IMG/VR virus record: IMGVR_UViG_3300047554_000685
Span: 15,363 to 79,362 of that record
From: a virus
DNA length: 64,000 nucleotides
Reading direction: 5' to 3' (one strand)
Shown piece after piece: positions 1 through 55,077 of the stretch (position 1 is the stretch's first letter; each line of letters begins with the position of its first letter). The notes beneath the pieces were generated by a model. That model worked only from the letters and a program-made list of their open reading frames with translations, ran no database searches and was not told the origin of the DNA. Both the position numbers and the translations under genes were made by a program.

Positions 1-901
1 CCATACGAGCTGCAATCATAAGAGCAGACTGAGGGTCAATAATTACGTGAGACTTTTCCTCGAGGTCGTAGACGTCATCGAGCATACGGTCATATGTCCA
101 TATGTCACCATCAACATGTCCTAGGTTGTCCCAGCAACCGTCGTCCCAGACATAAACCGAACCATCAATGTCAATCATGTAGAGTCGGTCAATACCAGAC
201 CCGTCTAAGCAAACCCGAGCCAAGAACTCTGGGCCGTAGTTTGCGTCAAGCTCGTGAGCGTACTTGAATGGGTTTAGTTCTTCGTTCTGCTTAGGGTAGT
301 TGATCTGATCAACGTAGTTAGAGACAGTGTATCCGCCAGCAGTAACTGACTTCTCTTTCTTGTCTTCGCGCTCAACAATGGCACGCGCCCAGCGCCAAGC
401 AGCGTCTCCACCCCAGAGTGCCCATGCGATACGCCCGTTAGATGGAAAATTGTCTTGGCCAGGCTTCCAGCCCTTACCCTTTTTATCAACTTCGTGACGA
501 GGGAAATACTTTGCAATATGGCGGATCTTGCGAATGCCAATTTGACCACCCTTAGCAAGGGTGCGGGCAGTATTCAAGCCAACAGGAGTTCCGCCTCGGC
601 CTTCTTCTTTACGCCATTCCAAAGCTTTCTTTGCCTCGGCTTGGGCGGACTTAGGAATGGTATACATTCTATCGGCAGAGGCAACAATTGCATCTTCTTC
701 TAGAGTGGCTAGAACCTTCTCGGCTAAAAGGGTTTCGGACCTAGTTAAAGGAGTATCCGAGGTCTCCCATTTGTTTTCTGCAAAGAGGTCTAATGCCACA
801 CCGCTGGCAACGACGGCTCCTACGGCAGTGTCAATAACTACACCGTGTGTATTGTTAGCATAGAATGCTAGTTCGCCAGAGCGGCCGATTAGGTGGTTCA
901 T
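1..901 (-). CDS. Phage head-associated protein (partial, runs off window end)
   Basis: Not in ORF track. Translated by hand from ATG at 901 (MNHLIGRSGELAFY...), open to position 1. Contains EAKKALEWRKEEGRGGTPVG...KYFPRHEVDKKGKGW...PSNGRIAWALWGGDA, a motif seen in phage head-morphogenesis proteins. GTAAAAT promoter-like motif about 40 nt upstream. Confidence 0.75.
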   Translation of the reverse strand, partial: MNHLIGRSGELAFYANNTHGVVIDTAVGAVVASGVALDLFAENKWETSDTPLTRSETLLAEKVLATLEEDAIVASADRMYTIPKSAQAEAKKALEWRKEEGRGGTPVGLNTARTLAKGGQIGIRKIRHIAKYFPRHEVDKKGKGWKPGQDNFPSNGRIAWALWGGDAAWRWARAIVEREDKKEKSVTAGGYTVSNYVDQINYPKQNEELNPFKYAHELDANYGPEFLARVCLDGSGIDRLYMIDIDGSVYVWDDGCWDNLGHVDGDIWTYDRMLDDVYDLEEKSHVIIDPQSALMIAARM

Positions 902-1130: not shown

Positions 1131-3303
1131 CTGAGTCTCCATCTGATTTAGATTTGTTTGATGCTCGGTAACCCTCGATAGGGCTCCAGTCTCCCAGATC
1201 CATACCTAGCAAATAGTCTACTACCTTCTGAGCCTCGGAAGATGCTTTCATAACCATATCCGGGTTGTCTTGTAGTGCTTCTAGCCAGCTCTTTACATAC
1301 GCTGCAGTGTTATCAAAGTCACTGTTAACACCAAACATGCTAGCAAGGATTGCTGCAGAGATTTCTGCAATAAGTTCCTCTTCACCTCTAGCCGCATTAT
1401 CAGTTCCGTAGTTCTTGGTTAGTTCGGTACGGTCAAGGCGATCCTTGTGTCCGGTGCTGTGGGCAAGCTCGTGAGTAATAGTGTCAAACATATCTTCTGG
1501 ACTATTGAACTGCTCCTTGGTTGGGAGGGTAATGACGTCAGAAGCTGGGTTCCAGTTTGGAGAAGAAGAGTGGCTACCATACTCACCTACGTAGGTATAA
1601 GAAACTTCAGGGGCTTTCAAACCCTTAGCTTCCATAGACTTGCGGTATCGCTCTAGGATGAAGTCCTGAGACTCTAAAGGAGTTTTAGGTTCGCCAGCTT
1701 CAGCCTTAACCGTAGGCAGGTTTAGGCCGTCAATCTGCTCAACGTTAAATACGGTCTTTACACCAAATGTTACGTAGCTACCAGTTACCTTTTCTTCTCC
1801 GGTTGAAGAGTCTTTCTCTTTCTTAACCCTCTTGTAAGGAACAAGGATTTGTACACCCTTCTCGCCCTTACGAACCTGCCCGCCTAGCTCGGTGGCTTGG
1901 TTGTAAGTCATCCAGCGTGGGTCGCTATATCCAGATAGTTGCTGATAGAGCTTAAGAACAATCGAGTTGATGCCGCTATAGATGTGTTTTGACGCTGGGT
2001 TGCGCGGAACGAATGCACCAGCATAGTTAGCATCATCCTTGAATGGTTTACGCCAAGGAGCCTTACCTTCTTTAATCTTTTCCAGTAAGCCAGACAGAAC
2101 TCGCTCTTTAGCATCCTTGCTGTCAGATACTGATTTAGCACGGTTGAAAGGTTTTTTGCCTGGGGCTTGATTAAACCCTAGAAGGGGAGCATCAACTGAA
2201 TCAGGGTTAGTGTCCGGGTTAAGGCTTGAGTCTTCTGGAGTAGTAGACGCCATTCTTGCTGACTGTAGGGTCGGAGCAACCTTAGTCTTTAGCGGGTTCC
2301 ACTGAGGAAGGACGTCATTACCTAGTAGGTAGTCGGCAGCCAACTGAGCACGGGTCATGGCGTCAGTCACAGCCTTGTCCGCATCAATGCCATCTAGGTT
2401 TCTGATGTGAGTGAGCAGGTAGCTGATCGAGTTCTCTGGGTCAGCATCAAGACCAAACATCTTTGCTAGAAGCATGGAGCCTAACTCAGCGGTTAGCTCT
2501 TCTTCTGCGTAGGCATTACTATTTCCATCCAATGCCTTCTTAACTTCTTCTCGGTTAAGTCGGTTAGTTCTACCCGTGCTGTGGATTAGTTCGTGGGCAA
2601 TAGCGTTGAACCAAGACTCGTCGCTATCAAAGTTTGCTCGGAGTGGTAGTCGTACTTTATCTACATCTCTACCGTAGCTTGGTTGCCAGCGAGGATTCTG
2701 ATCTTTATCTAGTTGAATACCATAGAGCTCTGGTTGCTTGATACCGCGGATCTCGGCCGCCTCGCGCATTCTGTCGAGAACAATGTCTACAGCCTCTTTT
2801 GCGGTGTAAGACTTGTTTTCGTCAGCGTTGTATGGATCGATTCCTTGGATCTGGTCACCATTAAAAACAGTGACTTTTCTAAACTCAAAGTGCTCAACAA
2901 CCTTGCCATCACGACTGGTGACAAAGAAACTAGGTACAAGAATCTGAGTACCCTTGGTTCCAGCCGAGATAGAGCCACCAGCCTGAGCAACCTGAGAAGC
3001 AGTCATCCAGCGAGGATCACTGAACCCATTTTCTGAGGCCGCGGCTTCTAGAGCAATCATGTTAGGGCCGGTGTAGTGGGTGTTGCTTGCAGGGTTGACT
3101 GGAAGAGGGCGATTAGCGTCCCTGCTCCACTTACGTACCCATTCTTTTAGTTTTCTAGGGTTGCGTAGTTTTTCTAGGACATCGCTTAGAACGCTAGACG
3201 CTGCAGCCTTATTTGCCTCTGTTACAGAAGCCAACTTCTCATCTAGCTGTTCTTCAGTCAACTCGAGCGGATTAGTTCTAGACCCCGGCTCGCCTTCAGG
3301 CAC
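1123..3303 (-). CDS. Tandem ArdC-like (DUF1738 ssDNA-binding) + zincin metallopeptidase domains, two copies; probably the C-terminal part of a frameshift fusion
   Basis: Two ArdC-N units (P.NPAS...Y.G.N...DPRWMT..Q....GG....G.KG.QILVP...VFN..QI.G), each followed by HELIH/HELAH and EEL.AE motifs. The frame stays open upstream to about 3432 with no clear RBS before the GTG at 3303. Confidence 0.85.
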   Translation of the reverse strand: MPEGEPGSRTNPLELTEEQLDEKLASVTEANKAAASSVLSDVLEKLRNPRKLKEWVRKWSRDANRPLPVNPASNTHYTGPNMIALEAAASENGFSDPRWMTASQVAQAGGSISAGTKGTQILVPSFFVTSRDGKVVEHFEFRKVTVFNGDQIQGIDPYNADENKSYTAKEAVDIVLDRMREAAEIRGIKQPELYGIQLDKDQNPRWQPSYGRDVDKVRLPLRANFDSDESWFNAIAHELIHSTGRTNRLNREEVKKALDGNSNAYAEEELTAELGSMLLAKMFGLDADPENSISYLLTHIRNLDGIDADKAVTDAMTRAQLAADYLLGNDVLPQWNPLKTKVAPTLQSARMASTTPEDSSLNPDTNPDSVDAPLLGFNQAPGKKPFNRAKSVSDSKDAKERVLSGLLEKIKEGKAPWRKPFKDDANYAGAFVPRNPASKHIYSGINSIVLKLYQQLSGYSDPRWMTYNQATELGGQVRKGEKGVQILVPYKRVKKEKDSSTGEEKVTGSYVTFGVKTVFNVEQIDGLNLPTVKAEAGEPKTPLESQDFILERYRKSMEAKGLKAPEVSYTYVGEYGSHSSSPNWNPASDVITLPTKEQFNSPEDMFDTITHELAHSTGHKDRLDRTELTKNYGTDNAARGEEELIAEISAAILASMFGVNSDFDNTAAYVKSWLEALQDNPDMVMKASSEAQKVVDYLLGMDLGDWSPIEGYRASNKSKSDGDSDE

Positions 3304-3401
3304 TGAAGGGCGAACAGAGTTATCAGCCGCAGACTTGCGGTACTTATCTAGAATGCTCTTGATTCTGTCTAAATCTGGAGCGTCCTGATCTAATCCAGGC
3401 T

Positions 3402-3432
3402 CAGCCCCCTCGCTGGGGGCTAGGCTTTTGGG
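3402..3432 (-). promoter_or_regulatory. Putative -1 programmed ribosomal frameshift signal
   Basis: In-frame heptamer C CCA AAA (3432-3426), 4 nt spacer, then hairpin AGCCCCC-AGCGA-GGGGGCT (3421-3403); the -1 frame is the frame of the ArdC ORF. Confidence 0.7.
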
Positions 3433-6400
3433 TTTTTCTCGATTAGTGCTCGTAAACGATCAGCATAAGCATCTAGCTTGCGCGCTGCGTTCTCGCCAAT
3501 ACCACGGTTAGTTGAGCGTAACCAACTAACAGCTGATTCGATTGCCCTCAGAATGTCTTCAGGATTATTTCCTACCACATCAATAAGGCCAGCCATATCT
3601 CCTTCGGAGTCGTCGTTTAACAATCGAGCGTAGACATCACCTAATGACTCGTTTTCTTTTGATAGGTTGGCGGCGGCCCATGCGGCGGCGTCCTCGCGAT
3701 CATCAAACTCTTTACTGTAGCTGTCAGAATCGCTCTCGGGAGAATCTACATAACCTACCCATTTGCCAGTTTCTTCATCCTGACGAACTCCACCTTCCCA
3801 GCCGCCTCCGCGAACATCTCCGAGAGGGTACTCTTTGTCGTTCATATGGGCTTCAATGTCAGCAACGTCAGTAGGGTAGTAGTAGTCAAAGAAGTCTTTT
3901 AGATCTTCAAATGCCTTACCAAATTCAAAATCGCTACCCGCATCTTCTGGGTCGCGCTTAGCTGCTTCAATAGGTCCTAGATCGGACTCGATCTTGGCAA
4001 GCAAGTCATCAGCTGCCTTCTTAAGACGAGCTTCTAGGTCCTTACCTCCCTCTGAAGTAGGGCGCATTGAATTGTATGCATCCATTAGCTCGGAGTATAG
4101 GTAGTAAGCATCATCAATATCGTTCGGGTCAAGGCCCTCGACGAAGTCTTTGCCTAGGAATGCATAGCCTTTTTCATCGCTGTTCTCGGTTTCCTCGGCC
4201 AAAGAAACTAGCTCTGGTTTCATCTGCTCCCAAGAAGTTCCGTACTGCTTTCCGGCTGCTTGATCAAAACCCTTATCACCAGACTCTAACTTGGCAATTG
4301 CATCATCCATGTCGCTTGACCAGCGGCCATAACGCTCGTCGGCTCGTAGACGCTTTAGTGCATCTAGGTCACCCTTAGAAACTAGCGAGTCAATGTAGTT
4401 ATTGATTCCGCCCTCAACGTCATCCATTTCTTTCAGCATGCTGATGATAGATGAAACATCGCCCTTTGAGCGGTTCTCTAGGTCCTTGAGAATTTCATCG
4501 CGATCAGCGTCAGATAGGCCCTTAGCGTAGACGTCACGCTTTACAGAGTCAATCATCTTCTGAGAAGGCTTGCCGTACTGCCCCAAGTTTTCCTTGTCAC
4601 CAAGGTCGCGGAGCTTACCGATGAATCCACCAGCCTGAGCCTTAGTCAGGTTGTTTCCTTCTAGAGCCTCTTTGATAGCCTGAGCAGTTTCTGAGTCAAT
4701 ACCTGACTTGGTCTCAGAGAGGTTCTTAAGGTAGTTGTATTGGGCTTCGGTTGCTGGCTCCATCATCTTTGGAGATAGAGTTTTGCCTGGAGCTTGGTCG
4801 AAGCCGTCAATATCAACTCCAGCGTTTTCAAGCATGTCTGCAATCAGCTCTGGATCTTCGTTGGCATAGAAGTCAATAAAGTCTTCAGCGTAGTACTGAG
4901 GCTTCTGCATTACACGCTTGCCATCTGGGTGATCTACCGCTACGTCATAGACCATGTCATAGAACTCGTCTGGGTTCGTCCGACGCAATTTAAGGAGGTA
5001 GTCCCTCATTGACTCGGCTACGCTGTCTTTGGTGTCTTGATCTAGTTCGTCCCAAGCATCGGCGATACTTTTACCAGAAGCTTGATCAAATCCAGGCTCT
5101 TCTTCGCCCTTACGTGCGTTGATGTCTGCTAGGGCGTCCTCAATCTGAGACTGGTACTCGCTGTAGCTCGGATCATTTACGATGTCCTCGAGGAAGTCCG
5201 AGTCATCTCCGTCAATCGCAGCCTGAACTTCATCTGCCTTTGCCTGATCAGCGTCCGCAAGATTCTTCTGCTTACGCGAGTCTAGGGCCTCCGCGTTGGT
5301 GCGAATGTCTTCAACAATCTTGTCAAAAATTCCACCAGTAGTGTCGTTAGCAATGTCACGCTCGGCACCAAGTGCATCAGCAACATTAGACGAGTCACGT
5401 AGACGCTCGGCAATCTGGTTTGCCTCGTCCATCTTGTCAGAAACCTCTGCCTCAGATAGTCCGTCAGCTTCCAGTGAGTTTTGGTAGTCCTCTAGGGCTT
5501 GGTCAATTGCAGACTCTACATCAGCGTGAGCTGAGTCGTATTCGCTGTCAAACTCACTGTCAATTCCTGCAGCTTGGTCAAAGCCTTCGGTCTGCTGGCG
5601 GTCTGGACGACGACGTAGCTTAGCGGTGAGCTTCTCAATTGAGTCACGATCTAGTCCTGCGTCAAGCTGAGCAAGAATGTCGTTCATCTCGTCAGGAGTC
5701 AATTCTTTGGTAGTTAGGTAACCCTGAAGCGAGTTGATCTGACGCTCGGTTGGCTTGGTTGGATCAACACCAGGCTTAAAAGGCTTCTTAGTTAGGTCAC
5801 CAAACAGAGAGGCCATCTGGGCCTTTGTTAGGTTCTTGTTAGCTAGAGCATCGTCAATAGCCTTTTGAGTGACAGGGTCAATACCGTCACGCTCTGAGTT
5901 AAGCTCCTCAAGAAGTGCATACTGCTTGTCAGTAGCTGGCTCCATCTGCTTTTCAGATAGTGGCTTAGCTGGTGCATCCGCCTTATCTTCGCCAGTCTTC
6001 TGGTCAAGACCAGCAGGTGGCTCGAGTTCATCTAGCTTCTTGTCTAGGTGCGCGTTGATGCCTTTACGAATATCAGAAGCAATGTCAGTTTCATCATAGG
6101 TCGGGCCAGCAGTGCCAGTAGCGACTTCATCGCCATCTTCGTTGTAGACGCCCCAGTTGCGGTAACCGTCTTCGTCTTCATCGCCAACCCAGATGCTATC
6201 ATCGCTGTCGCCATTGAAGATCTTGTTTGCAAGCTCGTCTACCTTGTTAAGTAGACCTTCCTTATCAACAGCCATGCGAGCCTGCTCCTGAGCTGCATCG
6301 GCTTGCTCCTTCTCCCACTTAGCACGGGCACGCTTCTCTACCTGCTCTGGAGAATTGTAGAAGTCTTCCTGAGCCTTACGGTCAGCTTCACGCTTAGCCT

Positions 6401-8597
6401 TCTTCTCTTCTGCATAGTTAGGGTTCTCTAGACCGTTTTCTGCCATAGCAGCAACACGGTCAAGGAAGTCAGGCCAAGACTCGCGGTTATTACGAAGCAC
6501 AGTCTCAACTGGCTTACCATCTACAGAGACCTGCATTTCGTCCCAAGCGACGTAGCCCTTTTCGTCATCGAACCACGAGCCGTCACGATACTTAACCTCT
6601 ACGCGACCATCTGGAGATGTGTAGGTTTCCTCTCCTCCAGTGAAGTTGCCGTCTGCATCCTCTTCGAGGAAGAACTTGTGATCACCTAGGTCCTTGGCAA
6701 TCTTTTTGCCAGCTGCGCTTAGCTTCGGAGCTTCACCCGGAGCCTGATCAAAACCACCGTCGTCCATACCAGCGCCGAAGTCATCATTGCGCCAAGCTTC
6801 GTAGAGGACATCATAAGCTTTGCTCGGGTCCTGTAGAACTTCAGCAAACTCTTCAGCTGCCTTAAGAGCGTCTTCCTTAGAGTCGTAAGTTTGCTTGTCC
6901 TCGTAGTTATATTCTAGGTTTTCATCAACCAAACCTTGAGGAATAGACTTAGTTACTTCGTACTTGTTGCCCTTACGCTTTACCTCTACAAAGCCTTCGT
7001 CATTACCGTACTCAAAGTCGTCGCCCATGTTGTCAGACTGCTTTAGACGGTTATCTGGGCTGAACCAGCTTTCCTGCTTCAAAAGCTTTTCTAGACCGTC
7101 GCCGGTGTCGCCATCTTCTAGATCTCGGTAGCTTGCACGATACGATCCGATGTATTGACCATCATAGGTAACACTAATTCCAGAAAGGTCGGTGGCTCCA
7201 AAGCCGACGTCACCTTCGCCATCAGCTTCCCAGTTAAGTTCTAGCTTACCATCAGGAGAGGTATACTCGGCCGAGCCGCCCAAGTCTTTCCAGTTCTGAG
7301 GATTTGATAAATGATCCCAGTCAATCGCGCTGTCAAACCAGTTTGAACCCTCTCCGGGCTTCTGATCTAGGCCAGGCTCTTCTGGAGTTTCGTCGCCCTC
7401 TCCATTAAGAGCATCGTAGGTCATACCAATCTTGTTGAGACCAGCCCAGTCCTGACCAACGCCAAGAATCTTGCCGTCTTTGTCGCGGATTTCAAACATC
7501 GGGGTATTTGGATCAATGGCACCGCTCTCGCCTGCGCCTTCGGTCATGTAGTCACCCTCTGGTAGGGTGTCAACAGCCTTTACAGTTTGACCAGTCTTAG
7601 ATGTGAAGGAACCGTCTTCATTCTTGGTCCAACCCTCTGGAGCATCTACACGAGTCTTTAGGAAGTCTTCTAGAGGAATTGCAGAGGCAATATCTGCCTT
7701 GCTCGGGGTCGCAATAGTGCGGTTAGCCTTGAGACCCTTTACCTTAGAAAGTGCGCGCTTAGAGAGAATAGCCTTTACTGGAGCAGTCTTAGCGGCGTCA
7801 ATAGTATAGATACCGTCAGGAATTTCGGGGCTGTCTTTAATCTCAATCTGGAAGTTGTTGGTTCCCTTAGGTGCACCAACAATGCGTGCATCTTCCGAAA
7901 AGATACTTCCGTCTCCGCGACTAAAGAATCCACGTAGACGCCCAAATTCCTCAGCGAATCGGCCATCACGGTGACGACGACGAACCGCTGCCAAAATCTT
8001 TGACATTGCTGAACGCATTGCAAAGCTCATCTTAAAGGCTGCAGTGATAGGAAGTACTACGTCTTCTGGAACATAGCCAGCAGCAACCAATGCGCCAAGC
8101 TTTGCGCTGGCGTAGTCAGCCTCTACAGAACCAGGCTTGGTTGCGTAGGCCGCGTAAACATCAAGACGAGCCTGCTCCGAGGCAATGCGAGGGTCACTAG
8201 CTACCCAAAGGGCGGTGACTCGAGATAGGGCAGAGGCAGTCATAGCACCACGGTTAGTACGTGACGGGTGTCCTAGAGGAAGGAAGTCGGTGTATTCGCC
8301 AAGGCCAGAAGCGATAATACCGTGGTGAGAGTAGTTAAGGACGTTGTCTACAGCATTTGCTGCAAATAGCATCCACTCGCTTGGGTCAGCATCTAGATTG
8401 AAGTGGATTGCGGTTTCGATGATGTTATCAATCGAAGCGTCTGACACCTGACGGGCCGAAGCAACCAGTGCATTCTGAGTCTTCGCGTACTCTACGATCG
8501 CTAGTTTAGAGAGGTGCTCTGCATCCTCGGTTGTGTAGTCGCGATCAGCGTAGAAGTTTTCAATCTTGCTGATGAGATTAGTGAATGCTGAGCTCAC
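3420..8597 (-). CDS. Giant acidic modular (polyvalent-type) virion/head-associated protein
   Basis: ORF track gives 1733 aa from 8621; likely start is GTG at 8597 after AGGAAGG. Contains RRHRDGRF, repeated G[FL]DQ linkers, duplicated YTSPDG modules and duplicated EPAT..Q...NLTKAQ modules. Lies in the head operon downstream of portal. Confidence 0.75.
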   Translation of the reverse strand: MSSAFTNLISKIENFYADRDYTTEDAEHLSKLAIVEYAKTQNALVASARQVSDASIDNIIETAIHFNLDADPSEWMLFAANAVDNVLNYSHHGIIASGLGEYTDFLPLGHPSRTNRGAMTASALSRVTALWVASDPRIASEQARLDVYAAYATKPGSVEADYASAKLGALVAAGYVPEDVVLPITAAFKMSFAMRSAMSKILAAVRRRHRDGRFAEEFGRLRGFFSRGDGSIFSEDARIVGAPKGTNNFQIEIKDSPEIPDGIYTIDAAKTAPVKAILSKRALSKVKGLKANRTIATPSKADIASAIPLEDFLKTRVDAPEGWTKNEDGSFTSKTGQTVKAVDTLPEGDYMTEGAGESGAIDPNTPMFEIRDKDGKILGVGQDWAGLNKIGMTYDALNGEGDETPEEPGLDQKPGEGSNWFDSAIDWDHLSNPQNWKDLGGSAEYTSPDGKLELNWEADGEGDVGFGATDLSGISVTYDGQYIGSYRASYRDLEDGDTGDGLEKLLKQESWFSPDNRLKQSDNMGDDFEYGNDEGFVEVKRKGNKYEVTKSIPQGLVDENLEYNYEDKQTYDSKEDALKAAEEFAEVLQDPSKAYDVLYEAWRNDDFGAGMDDGGFDQAPGEAPKLSAAGKKIAKDLGDHKFFLEEDADGNFTGGEETYTSPDGRVEVKYRDGSWFDDEKGYVAWDEMQVSVDGKPVETVLRNNRESWPDFLDRVAAMAENGLENPNYAEEKKAKREADRKAQEDFYNSPEQVEKRARAKWEKEQADAAQEQARMAVDKEGLLNKVDELANKIFNGDSDDSIWVGDEDEDGYRNWGVYNEDGDEVATGTAGPTYDETDIASDIRKGINAHLDKKLDELEPPAGLDQKTGEDKADAPAKPLSEKQMEPATDKQYALLEELNSERDGIDPVTQKAIDDALANKNLTKAQMASLFGDLTKKPFKPGVDPTKPTERQINSLQGYLTTKELTPDEMNDILAQLDAGLDRDSIEKLTAKLRRRPDRQQTEGFDQAAGIDSEFDSEYDSAHADVESAIDQALEDYQNSLEADGLSEAEVSDKMDEANQIAERLRDSSNVADALGAERDIANDTTGGIFDKIVEDIRTNAEALDSRKQKNLADADQAKADEVQAAIDGDDSDFLEDIVNDPSYSEYQSQIEDALADINARKGEEEPGFDQASGKSIADAWDELDQDTKDSVAESMRDYLLKLRRTNPDEFYDMVYDVAVDHPDGKRVMQKPQYYAEDFIDFYANEDPELIADMLENAGVDIDGFDQAPGKTLSPKMMEPATEAQYNYLKNLSETKSGIDSETAQAIKEALEGNNLTKAQAGGFIGKLRDLGDKENLGQYGKPSQKMIDSVKRDVYAKGLSDADRDEILKDLENRSKGDVSSIISMLKEMDDVEGGINNYIDSLVSKGDLDALKRLRADERYGRWSSDMDDAIAKLESGDKGFDQAAGKQYGTSWEQMKPELVSLAEETENSDEKGYAFLGKDFVEGLDPNDIDDAYYLYSELMDAYNSMRPTSEGGKDLEARLKKAADDLLAKIESDLGPIEAAKRDPEDAGSDFEFGKAFEDLKDFFDYYYPTDVADIEAHMNDKEYPLGDVRGGGWEGGVRQDEETGKWVGYVDSPESDSDSYSKEFDDREDAAAWAAANLSKENESLGDVYARLLNDDSEGDMAGLIDVVGNNPEDILRAIESAVSWLRSTNRGIGENAARKLDAYADRLRALIEKNPKA

Positions 8598-8669
8598 TTT
8601 AGGCCTTCCTGAGCAGGGCAATAATTGCTTAAGCTATGATACTAGAATTTTACCGTATTACCAGACAAT

Positions 8670-9365
8670 TTATTTTCTAGTTGACTTCGGATGTGCTTTT
8701 GGAAGCAGGTCGTTGTCGGTTGTGTATTTTGAGTTTTTAGGTGAACCAGAGCGTAGTAAATGCAGATAAGCATTTACACGAGCCATGGCCCAAGAGTTGC
8801 GGTTTTGATCTGGTCGGTGGGATGTAGAGAATGCACCTGCACCACGACGGTACACAGCTTTAAGGGCTCCCATGGTAGCTTTTCTACCGTCTGGTGCTTT
8901 CTTGTTGTGTGTTTCCATTTTGTTTTTTAGGGCTGTCACAATTTCTTCAGTAAAGTCTACAGACTTACCCGTGGCTGCTGACCCCTTTTTGTTTTTGCTT
9001 GAACCCTTGATTTGATCTTTCTTAGGTGCTGGCTTCGAACCTGCGGTTGCAGTTACTGCACCGTCCGGGAGAACTGCAAAACGGCAAAGTCCTCCGTCCT
9101 CCACTTCAGCTGCAATAATTGAGCAACCATTAGGTGCGTTGAAGAAAACGCAGTTGCCGCATTTTACGCCGATCTTAGCGTTGTCTTCATTTTCTGAGGC
9201 AGGGGTGTATCCGGCCCAGACGCCAGTGTTGTCATCATTAAATTTGCCATACTTATTCGCAATAAGTTGGAGTGCATCTGCAAGTTCTTGCTCTTCGGGG
9301 ACTAGGTTATATCCACCAGCAACTACAGAATCGTCTTTTTTGAATACATCACCAACATAAGACAT
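8670..9365 (-). CDS. Phage head-region protein with Cys-rich (HiPIP-like CxxC..C..C) domain and conserved C-terminal domain
   Basis: KCGNCVFF...CSII...GLCRF and LKAVYRRGAGAFSTSHRP...WAMARVNAYL; ATG at 9365 coupled to dps stop (TAATG). Confidence 0.65.
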   Translation of the reverse strand: MSYVGDVFKKDDSVVAGGYNLVPEEQELADALQLIANKYGKFNDDNTGVWAGYTPASENEDNAKIGVKCGNCVFFNAPNGCSIIAAEVEDGGLCRFAVLPDGAVTATAGSKPAPKKDQIKGSSKNKKGSAATGKSVDFTEEIVTALKNKMETHNKKAPDGRKATMGALKAVYRRGAGAFSTSHRPDQNRNSWAMARVNAYLHLLRSGSPKNSKYTTDNDLLPKAHPKSTRK

Positions 9366-9820
9366 TACTGAACCCCTAAAGTCGATTTCAATTGCCATTG
9401 CCACTTCTTGTGCATGTCAATGCGCCCGGCTAGGAAGTCAGCAATGCCTTGCTCATTGCATGCATCAGCAATGCCGAAAGCCTGCTCATAGCAAAGAAGC
9501 ACTCCCTGATTAACGCGAGCCAAAGATTCAACCATAGAGACCGGATCTCCAAGCTCCCTCTCTTGACGAACAATACAAGTTAGTTCTACGAAGTCGGTGA
9601 CTAGGTACGGGGCGTCATAGCCTAGCTTGCGGATGTTTTCAGCAAGAGGGTCAATGGCGCTATCAACATCAGAATAGATCTCTGCAAAAAAATCATGGAA
9701 CTGATGAAAAGTAAGACCCTTCACATTCCAGTGATATCCCTGAGCTAGAAACCCAAAGGTAGTTACATCAGCTAATAGATGTGCTAGTTGCTCTGCTAGC
9801 CCGTCCTTCTCATGGGTCAT
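9365..9820 (-). CDS. dps: Dps family ferritin-like DNA-protection protein
   Basis: HWNVKG..FHQFHDFF.E.Y....D.LAE.IR.LG ferroxidase signature, C-terminal HKKWQWQL. Confidence 0.92.
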   Translation of the reverse strand: MTHEKDGLAEQLAHLLADVTTFGFLAQGYHWNVKGLTFHQFHDFFAEIYSDVDSAIDPLAENIRKLGYDAPYLVTDFVELTCIVRQERELGDPVSMVESLARVNQGVLLCYEQAFGIADACNEQGIADFLAGRIDMHKKWQWQLKSTLGVQ

Positions 9821-13651: not shown

Positions 13652-14263
13652 CTAGCTTAGCCAGCGTTTTTCTAGGTCAGCAAAAATATACTGGTTAAAC
13701 CTAAAAGCAAGAACTACCTCGTCAATAAAAATTTTTGTGTCGGCAGTAGAAAGATTTAGACTGTCAAGTCCCTCGCGGTAGGTCTCTTTGTATCGGACCT
13801 TATCATCTATTTCGTCAAACTCATAGAAAGACAGAAAGTTTGGCGGAATCATCAGATTGCGCATAACAAGAGTCGCGATCGCCTGACCACCTGAAAGATC
13901 TCCGAGGTAGCGGGTGTAGTGGTGCGCTAGTAGGCGCGTCCAATCTTTATTTTGAACAAGAAAGCTAATGTGGTCGGCGTATTCCGTGGTGCTTCGGCAG
14001 ATTAGTTTTGATCCACCAAGTGACTCTATGTCGCAAACGATTCGCTCGAAACGGTCAAGCCTGCGGTCAAACATTGGCCACGGATTGCTTTGGTCGTCCC
14101 AAGCCTCTAGAGCACCGTAAATTGGAGCTAATTGGGTTAGGTAGTCTCGGTAAGCATCGGCCCCCACTTCACCGCGCATGAGTGCAATCATAAACGGGCT
14201 ACGTTCGGCAGCTGTGTGAGCCTCTTTAGAGGCCTCTTTAACAAGTTGTGAAAGCATAATCAT
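13652..14263 (-). CDS. Heme oxygenase (biliverdin-producing)
   Basis: Proximal His in HTAAERSPF, HHYTRYLGDLSGGQ signature, EVVLAFRFN. Confidence 0.92.
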   Translation of the reverse strand: MIMLSQLVKEASKEAHTAAERSPFMIALMRGEVGADAYRDYLTQLAPIYGALEAWDDQSNPWPMFDRRLDRFERIVCDIESLGGSKLICRSTTEYADHISFLVQNKDWTRLLAHHYTRYLGDLSGGQAIATLVMRNLMIPPNFLSFYEFDEIDDKVRYKETYREGLDSLNLSTADTKIFIDEVVLAFRFNQYIFADLEKRWLS

Positions 14264-54897: not shown

Positions 54898-54919
54898 TAA
54901 TTTATTACTAAAGTCTTTG

Positions 54920-55000
54920 TCTCGGCGGCGGGACTCGAACCCGCAAGCCTTGCGACGGCTGATTTTAAGTCAGCTGCGTATACCATTCCGCCACGCCGAG
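54920..55000 (-). tRNA. tRNA-Leu(TAA)
   Basis: Cloverleaf: acceptor CTCGGCG/CGCCGAG, anticodon arm GCTGA-CTTAAAA-TCAGC, long variable arm, GGTTCGAGTCC; no encoded CCA. Confidence 0.93.
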
Positions 55001-55077
55001 TGGTCGAGACTGTGGGACTTGAACCCACGACGACCGAATTATGAGTTCGGGGCTCTAACCAGCTGAGCTAAGTCTCG
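55001..55077 (-). tRNA. tRNA with CAT anticodon (Ile2 or elongator Met)
   Basis: Acceptor CGAGACT/AGTCTCG, arm CCGAA-CTCATAA-TTCGG, GGTTCAAGTCC, encoded CCA; abuts tRNA-Leu with no spacer. Confidence 0.92.

Follow-up and report, generated by a model that had tools for sequence, protein, structure and literature searches.

A conserved recoding site, very probably a programmed -1 ribosomal frameshift, joins an ArdC tandem to a giant head-module protein of freshwater actinophages

Background

The IMG/VR virus record IMGVR_UViG_3300047554_000685 contains, within the 64,000-nucleotide stretch from 15,363 to 79,362 that is analyzed here as a whole (the window), a giant gene of the phage head module whose last codons form a real and strongly conserved recoding site, very probably one of programmed -1 ribosomal frameshifting. 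In its own (0) frame the gene encodes a modular protein of 1725 amino acids (aa), and the -1 frame continues for 769 codons into two tandem units of an ArdC-N domain and a zincin-like MPTase-PolyVal domain, for a predicted transframe product of 1722 + 769 = 2491 aa. The original prediction, made from the DNA letters alone, had proposed a frameshift of this kind with products of about 1725 and about 2490 aa. The sizes agree with ours, and the proposal itself is supported by the conservation of the signal between relatives, by the lack of a start codon belonging to the ArdC frame, by purifying selection on that frame and by a relative in which the two parts are fused. The features on which the argument turns are the following; like all other features of the locus, they lie on the minus strand of the window.

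3420..8597, minus strand: giant modular gene of the head module, coding for 1725 aa in the 0 frame, GTG 8597 to TAG 3422-3420
3426..3432, minus strand: slippery heptamer C_CCA_AAA, whose X_XXY_YYZ phase is that of the giant open reading frame (ORF), AA-C CCA AAA, and which is invariant in eight loci
3420..3422, minus strand: 0-frame stop codon TAG, one codon past the heptamer and the first 3 nt of the 5' arm of the hairpin
3402..3422, minus strand: candidate stimulatory hairpin with an 8-bp stem, UAGCCCCC/GGGGGCUG, and a 5-nt loop
1123..3432, minus strand: extension in the -1 frame, open over 769 codons between the heptamer and a stop at 1125-1123

Slippery heptamer, stop codon and hairpin

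The giant ORF ends ...GAG AAA AAC CCA AAA GCC TAG, with its stop at 3422-3420 (minus strand), and the C CCA AAA that had been read at this point is indeed present and in frame. So is the GC-rich hairpin past the heptamer, which consists of a 5' arm at 3422-3415 (UAGCCCCC), a loop at 3414-3410 (AGCGA) and a 3' arm at 3409-3402 (GGGGGCUG); its stem is made of seven Watson-Crick pairs and a closing U.G (in order U.G, A-U, G-C and five C-G), and a spacer of 3-4 nt separates it from the heptamer. A 71-nt fold around the hairpin has a free energy of -26.9 kcal/mol, with z = -3.1 relative to dinucleotide shuffles. From the heptamer the -1 frame reads PKSLAPSEGAEPGLDQDAPDLDRIKSILDK... / PKSLAPSEGAEPGLDQDAPDLDRIKSILDKYR... 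and then runs into the two ArdC-N plus MPTase-PolyVal units. The heptamer by itself has an ordinary frequency (9 copies in the window against 10.2 expected), so the argument depends on how the features combine and on what relatives show.

No U-tract lies 3' of the hairpin, and a terminator scan of the minus strand was negative. A terminator-like match on the plus strand (3413-3431) was judged to be due to chance, since it is antisense to the gene and needs an A5 run that two of the relatives described below (L002 and L007) lack. An Rfam search of the element returned sub-threshold chance hits only and no matching family. There is no upstream stimulator resembling a Shine-Dalgarno (SD) sequence that is conserved across the eight loci, and no phage tRNA-Lys or tRNA-Pro gene bearing on the slippery site was found in the window. 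The window does have adjacent genes for tRNA-Leu(TAA) and tRNA-Met(CAT) at 54919-55077 (minus strand).

The geometry of the ribosome is such that a spacer of 3-4 nt puts the base of the stem at the mRNA entrance when the heptamer occupies the P and A sites. A ribosome translating the giant mRNA would be expected to reach AA-C CCA AAA with its P site occupied by tRNA-Pro and its A site by tRNA-Lys, while the 8-bp GC hairpin stood at the entry channel and promoted a slip. Most ribosomes would read GCC and end at the TAG buried in the stem, yielding the 1725-aa protein ...NPKA, and some would slip back by one base (CCA to CCC, AAA to AAA) and continue as ...NPK-SLAPSEGAEPGLDQ... over 769 codons, yielding a 2491-aa protein with the two ArdC-N/zincin units at its C terminus. 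The junction peptide expected from a -1 slip is ...NPKSLAPSEGAEPGLDQ... (...NPKSLAPSEG...). We infer from the features of the signal and their conservation that the slippage is ribosomal.

Conservation of the signal among relatives

The comparison embraces eight independent loci, namely the window, six IMG/VR contigs and one GenBank metagenome contig, among which the last 400 aa of the giant protein are 46-68% identical. The original prediction had called for a check on the conservation of heptamer, hairpin and stop, and these are kept in 8/8 loci as CCCAAAAGC-N-TAGCCCCC-N5-GGGGGCTGA, a signal in which 26/32 nt are invariant; the longest invariant run elsewhere in the 630-nt alignment is 3 nt. 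The only positions of the signal that vary are the wobble base of the Ala codon (GCC, GCG or GCT) and the loop, of which there are six variants, and because the wobble changes leave the 0-frame residue unaltered and the loop changes freely, the pattern fits a spacer and a loop. The stop is TAG in every locus and never TAA or TGA, the eight pairs of the hairpin are all unchanged in 8/8, and the Lys codon of the heptamer is always AAA and never AAG. Outer pairs that RNAalifold placed around the hairpin are not kept in two of the loci (L006 and L007) and were set aside. In the flanking gene, 2/32 of the 4-fold degenerate sites whose amino acid is invariant are also invariant in nucleotide (a 6% background), as against all such sites inside the signal, where four fall in the stem (-1 frame GCC, CCC, GGG and GCT) and one is that of CCA in the 0 frame. 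The codon ahead of CCA always has C as its third base under three different residues (AAC, TCC and GCC, for N, S and A), and a first heptamer base that is fixed in this manner points to tandem slippage on the full heptamer. Past the heptamer the -1 frame of every locus stays open over 770 codons or more, or as far as the contig reaches, and ahead of the heptamer a stop closes it at a distance of 1-17 codons (9 codons in the window). A G[FL][DN]Q linker motif follows the signal in 8/8.

The same two frames could also be joined by a +5 ribosomal hop, in which the peptidyl-tRNA-Ala would leave the GCN codon before UAG and re-pair with a GCC (the last base of TAG plus CC) in the -1 frame, such that the junction would read ...NPKA-PSEG.... 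Several aspects of the layout are suited to a hop: the GCC lies 5 nt past the Ala codon and in the -1 frame, the first two bases of the Ala codon are invariant, and the stop codon sits inside a hairpin directly behind the candidate take-off codon, for which the take-off in T4 gene 60 offers a likeness. However, the take-off codon is GCG in 3/8 loci and GCT in one and the landing codon is always GCC, so that the wobble match needed for re-pairing is not kept, and a hop leaves unexplained the fixed C before CCA, the invariant 4-fold site of CCA and the use of AAA to the exclusion of AAG. We consider a hop to be quite improbable.

Homologues of the giant protein beyond these loci extend the comparison. 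A word-indexed search of 5.8 billion proteins returned 23 clusters (44-100% identity, 1640-2200 aa), and the 20 sequences obtained from them all end ...PKA; the same ending was read for two others (P0005 and P0006) from their own loci, L003 and L004. An exhaustive phmmer search with the last 279 residues against 1.84 billion representatives found six clusters in which the domain is C-terminal in 6/6, all ending PKA. Altogether 28/28 detected homologues besides the window's own protein end ...PKA, and no homologue of 953-3033 aa continues past the frameshift site. Nor did the eight loci and 28 homologues yield a case of the kind that the original prediction had named as refuting it, a homologue with an independent start and no slippery site. 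Megablast and tblastn searches of the locus against GenBank phages gave no match, a scan of genome contigs with a profile of the C-terminal domain revealed no prophage relative, a scan of metagenome contigs added one locus only (L017), and looser DNA patterns run on viral contigs recovered the same six contigs and no variant lacking CCC.

These data also bear on slippage at the level of RNA or DNA, whereby a polymerase or the replication machinery would add or drop a base in the A and C runs and a subpopulation of templates would have the two frames fused. Homopolymer runs, albeit short ones, are present at the site (in the window A5, C3 and A4), and the manner in which rare variants drop out of contigs leaves room for such a minority. 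Transcriptional slippage generally needs runs of about 7-9 or more, whereas those present here are only 3-5 nt long and the A5 run is missing from L002 and L007. Template slippage requires neither a downstream hairpin nor the exact phase of the heptamer, yet both are invariant, and the fused state was seen in 0/8 loci and in 0 of the other detected homologues. Transcriptional slippage has been reviewed elsewhere (PMC5009743); as the explanation of this site we regard slippage of the template as very improbable.

The -1 frame extension and its ArdC tandem

The -1 frame runs without a stop from the heptamer into the ArdC ORF, as had been predicted, over the 769 codons given above, and its further features are these:

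3385..3402, minus strand: bridge linker EPGLDQ in the -1 frame, with the same G[FL][DN]Q motif as in the 0-frame protein
2233..3180 (borders approximate), minus strand: first ArdC-N plus zincin-like MPTase-PolyVal unit, from Pfam and PHROG matches, with HELIH at 2595-2581
2167..2178, minus strand: linker GFNQ between the ArdC units, from a motif search
1201..2118, minus strand: second ArdC-N plus MPTase unit (extension residues 439-744), from Pfam and PHROG matches, with HELAH at 1473-1459

Both families are matched over two stretches, PF08401 (ArdC-N) at 9.2e-50 with 168.4 bits (gathering cut-off 22.6) and PF18818 (MPTase-PolyVal) at 4.5e-48 with 162.9 bits (gathering cut-off 27.5). The HExxH motif is intact in both zincin domains (HELIH and HELAH). 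The extension also matches phrog_7245, annotated as "anti-restriction protein," at 3.9e-120. This family annotation, taken with what is known of plasmid ArdC (PMC7213743), suggests an anti-restriction activity for the two units, and ArdC would be expected to counter host restriction early in infection.

Gene callers place the start of the downstream ORF at GTG 3303, which gives a product of 726 aa, and it is on this annotation that an explanation by two separate genes can be built. The hairpin would then be a regulatory, RNA-processing or recombination-anchor element, and the ArdC ORF would be initiated or reinitiated at GTG 3303 or at a non-canonical codon. The original prediction had noted that the ArdC ORF lacks a clear ribosome-binding site, and this is borne out: no purine-rich SD sequence occurs in the 18 nt ahead of GTG 3303 or before any other candidate start, whereas the giant ORF has AGGAAGG. 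Nor is the GTG conserved, since the position is ATG in L002 and GTA in L003-L005; no -1-frame start codon is conserved across the loci, and L003 has no ATG, GTG or TTG in its first 130 codons. Conservation at the protein level extends over the 43 codons that separate the heptamer from the GTG, and these include the linker motif. In the 100 -1-frame codons directly after the hairpin dN/dS is 0.10-0.17, and in the ArdC part it is 0.07-0.12, both indicative of purifying selection, with dS from 0.8 to more than 2 between loci and synonymous sites near or at saturation. The absence of a U-tract and the closure of the -1 frame shortly before the heptamer in every locus likewise speak against a separate gene.

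What two genes would account for is that module content switches directly 3' of the hairpin in some of the relatives. Between the signal and ArdC, L017 has an additional linker-bounded module of about 330 aa (L017:6088-7380) with an EGNHR motif and no Pfam match, and L006 has one of about 165 aa that is also bounded by linkers (L006:7179-9968). A minor contig of run X9 departs from the window at 3386, exactly 3' of the hairpin, into a module of the L017 type, and one lake sample contains both window-type and L017-type junctions. This switch of modules suggests that the 32-nt block, or cassette, may double as a recombination anchor for the exchange of cargo. The linker motif in the bridge (an EPGLDQ of the upstream protein, as the original prediction had recognized) and the linker-bounded inserts together indicate that the extension behaves like one more section of the upstream modular polyprotein.

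The two-gene explanation is also at odds with a relative in which no frames need to be joined. P0036, a protein of 2848 aa from an 88-kb contig in ENA, matches the giant protein's N-terminal domain at 36% identity over 411 aa (E 1e-60) and the C-terminal domain at 28% identity (E 3e-26), with the latter match ending opposite residue 1729 of P0001; past this domain it runs on in the same frame, first through a GGFNQEAG linker and then through additional modules, up to a double ArdC-N/MPTase. The fused protein shows that the ArdC tandem belongs to the giant protein; in the clade studied here the junction bears a recoding signal. Two separate genes would seem to us very unlikely on this evidence, and with frameshifting preferred, the lack of an own start for the ArdC tandem makes the shift the only evident route of its expression, one that would set the amount of ArdC relative to the short form. 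In P0036 and two other more distant proteins, P0037 (3832 aa) and P0035 (1399 aa), the giant ORF ends with an in-frame ArdC tandem; the precomputed Pfam list for P0035 adds domains resembling ADP-ribosyl-exotoxin and ParB.

Assembly soundness and points against frameshifting

The window comes from a single metagenome-assembled contig, a 79-kb IMG/VR entry with a CheckV completeness estimate of 47%, and it might be supposed that the frame change is an assembly indel, or else an inactivating frameshift that has left a dead ArdC remnant. The original prediction had asked for reads to be examined for an indel or a miscounted homopolymer. Logan contigs from three runs, each of a different study, cover 2900-3950 in full, with 0 differences from the window and 0 gaps, and a fourth run, with a depth of about 300-400x, gives overlapping identical pieces across the same interval. 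The frames are arranged as in the window in the seven other contigs, which were assembled independently, and in all other detected homologues. A decaying remnant would hardly be expected to keep a -1 ORF of at least 770 open codons under purifying selection this strong while synonymous sites approach saturation. Artefact and decay are thus contradicted by frame layout, signal conservation, independent assemblies and selection, and we regard them as effectively refuted.

There are nevertheless several points that weigh against programmed frameshifting. A spacer of 5-9 nt is usual for characterised sites, and the 3-4 nt found here is shorter, toward the lower limit of what is known. The stem, since it never varies, offers no compensatory covariation in the eight loci, and its conservation is partly confounded with coding in the -1 frame, although the 4-fold sites argue for a constraint on the RNA. 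Logan contigs drop rare variants, so that minority DNA variants may persist, and no RNA runs are listed among the public runs that contain the locus. In E. coli, an A-site A_AAA is much less shifty than A_AAG (PMC4066793). In favour of a shift, C_CCA_AAA belongs in the same bacterium to a set of 18 heptamers that genes under-use and that shift at more than 0.1% without a stimulator, and C_CCA_AAG was the most efficient heptamer tested, at 54% with a pseudoknot (PMC4066793; PMC5009743).

Modular organization of the giant protein

Three parts make up the 1725-aa protein: a conserved N-terminal domain of about 400 aa, variable modules between which seven G[FL]DQ linkers are set, and a C-terminal domain that is also conserved and has ...NPKA as its end. 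Two sets of features complete its description:

8604..8610, minus strand: SD-like AGGAAGG, 6 nt ahead of GTG 8597
7373-7362, 6755-6744, 6011-6000, 5585-5574, 5093-5082, 4805-4794, 4271-4260, 3396-3385 and 2178-2167, minus strand: G[FL][DN]Q linkers, from a motif search

No family in Pfam or PHROG matches the 1725-aa protein, so far as these two collections go the only domains identified in the giant product being ArdC-N and MPTase, and AlphaFold2, given an alignment of 5 sequences, modelled the conserved N-terminal domain with a mean pLDDT of 45.6, which is too low to use. Several homologues (P0016, P0019, P0021, P0024 and P0031) carry the JGI name "predicted RNA-binding protein Jag"; this probably derives from one variable module or is spurious, because Pfam detects nothing of that kind in the window's protein.

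The G[FL][DN]Q motif occurs 9 times in the 2494 residues of both products, against 0.10 expected from composition. It mostly continues as A/K/D and P/A/S/T-G, and it parts modules of the size of domains. The homologues of 1640-2200 aa have the same motif between modules that differ in number and kind. This recurrence makes the motif a candidate protease cleavage code, with the linkers as presumed cleavage sites. On contig IMGVR_UViG_3300037346_000402 (L024:12112-12114) a lone in-frame TGA splits the giant gene into ORFs of 888 and 566 aa in the same frame; it sits in a short remnant between two EGLDQ linkers and may represent a genuine nonsense mutation, the scar of a deletion or an assembly chimera.

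Genome context

The minus-strand order of genes leading to the site is heme oxygenase, large terminase, portal, a Dps/ferritin-like gene, DUF5824, the giant gene and the ArdC extension, and these are followed by a protein of 1499 aa that includes a head-maturation-protease region, then by the major head protein, the major tail protein, an adaptor and the tape measure. The portal protein is 74% identical to that of Actinomycetia phage DSL-LC01, a lake isolate, and 60-64% identical to those of large Microbacterium phages. DSL-LC01 and the Microbacterium phages have giant unannotated ORFs after the portal gene (of 3289 aa and 2235 aa), and the giant ORF of DSL-LC01 has an N-terminal domain motif in common with the window's protein. 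The public runs in which the locus was found derive from freshwater or aquatic metagenomes. Gene order, portal relatives and aquatic runs together place the site in the head module of a freshwater actinophage. The position of the giant gene between the portal and the protease and capsid genes, together with the concept of polyvalent proteins (PMC5512222), suggests that its product may be a head-internal cargo which is packaged and delivered with the DNA.

The 1499-aa protein (L027:11764-16263, minus strand; window 1-901 is its start) matches head-maturation-protease PHROGs at residues ~940-1164, with long regions on either side of the match, which makes it the second giant protein of the head module. 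The packaging and head operon also includes an iron-handling set, with heme oxygenase (13652-14263) directly ahead of the large terminase and the Dps/ferritin-like gene and DUF5824 (9365-9820 and 8670-9404, all on the minus strand) between the portal and the giant gene. The frameshift site itself is in the head module, and the major tail and tape-measure genes are more than 8 kb further along; at the tail-chaperone overlap (L027:4688-4739) no obvious heptamer was seen on inspection.

Comparison with other recoding systems and related proteins

The closest parallels in position are the end-of-gene shifts of phage virion genes. The Lactobacillus phage A2 heptamer is reported to be C_CCA_AAA as well. 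In Lactobacillus phage A2, T7 and T3, as is proposed for the window, a -1 shift just before the 0-frame stop creates a minor, C-terminally extended isoform of a virion gene. The extensions in those phages are short structural or Ig-like capsid decorations, whereas that of the window would add 769 aa of enzymatic and DNA-binding anti-defence cargo to a 1725-aa protein that is not a capsid protein. The A2 gp5A/gp5B (major head protein), T7 10A/10B and T3 capsid cases, all end-of-gene -1 shifts in which a downstream stem-loop is involved, are reviewed in PMC5009743 and cited in PMC10885494. The lambda G/GT shift is similar to the window's site in that a conserved phage -1 shift fixes the ratio of a short to a long product, but it concerns another protein family and function, and the window's site is not between the major tail and tape-measure genes. 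The signal is a canonical -1 site of the bacterial type, and with dnaX and IS3/IS911 it has in common an X_XXA_AAZ heptamer and a downstream hairpin or pseudoknot; unlike them, it has no conserved upstream SD-like stimulator, its spacer is 3-4 nt and its 0-frame stop lies within the stem, and the dnaX shift shortens the product whereas this one would lengthen it.

As a protein, the predicted giant product would resemble the polyvalent proteins, such as P1 DdrB and the vRNAP-MPTase fusions of N4, in being a giant multidomain protein of a structural module with ArdC-N and MPTase (PMC5512222). The pairing of ArdC-N with a zincin MPTase is the commonest in that class, and the MPTase has been proposed to process the polypeptide (PMC5512222). 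Unlike the polyvalent proteins that have been described, the ArdC/MPTase part would here be reached only by recoding, and most of the other modules match no known domain. Frameshifting has 0 occurrences in the polyvalent-protein paper (PMC5512222). The ArdC of plasmids R388 and pSa, according to PMC7213743, helps incoming DNA to escape type I restriction. The plasmid protein and each unit of the window have the same two-domain layout, a single-stranded DNA-binding ArdC-N and an HExxH metallopeptidase, but plasmid ArdC is a stand-alone protein of about 300 aa with its own start, whereas the tandem units of the window would form the C terminus of a phage polyprotein.

There is also a likeness in logic to the Gag/Gag-Pro-Pol arrangement of retroviruses, in which a structural polyprotein is made in excess and a fixed minority of the product has a transframe part that bears a peptidase, with recurring linkers. 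A retrovirus-like scheme of dosing would have the 1725-aa cargo polyprotein abundant and the transframe zincin rare, with the latter cutting the G[FL][DN]Q linkers so as to free modules and ArdC, and the conserved cassette serving in addition as a recombination anchor (L006, L017 and the X9 variant). Such cutting may take place in the capsid or after ejection. The window belongs to a dsDNA tailed phage without homology to the retroviral system, and linker cleavage and zincin processing are hypothetical here; we put the scheme forward tentatively and think it unlikely as a whole.

Implications

A literature search found no paper that links recoding or frameshifting with ArdC, polyvalent proteins or MuF. 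The mechanism is of a known kind, but the class of gene and the cargo that is dosed appear to be undescribed in the searchable literature. The finding would connect recoding with the injected "polyvalent" proteins of phages, two fields that are unlinked there. At the level of annotation, gene callers split the locus into a "hypothetical protein" and a start-less "ArdC," which the recoding site corrects for a whole clade of actinophages that abound in fresh water. The signal is short, invariant and portable, and the linker motif together with a transframe peptidase raises a model of processing. More generally, it suggests that phages could set the per-virion copy number of an anti-restriction cargo at the level of translation.

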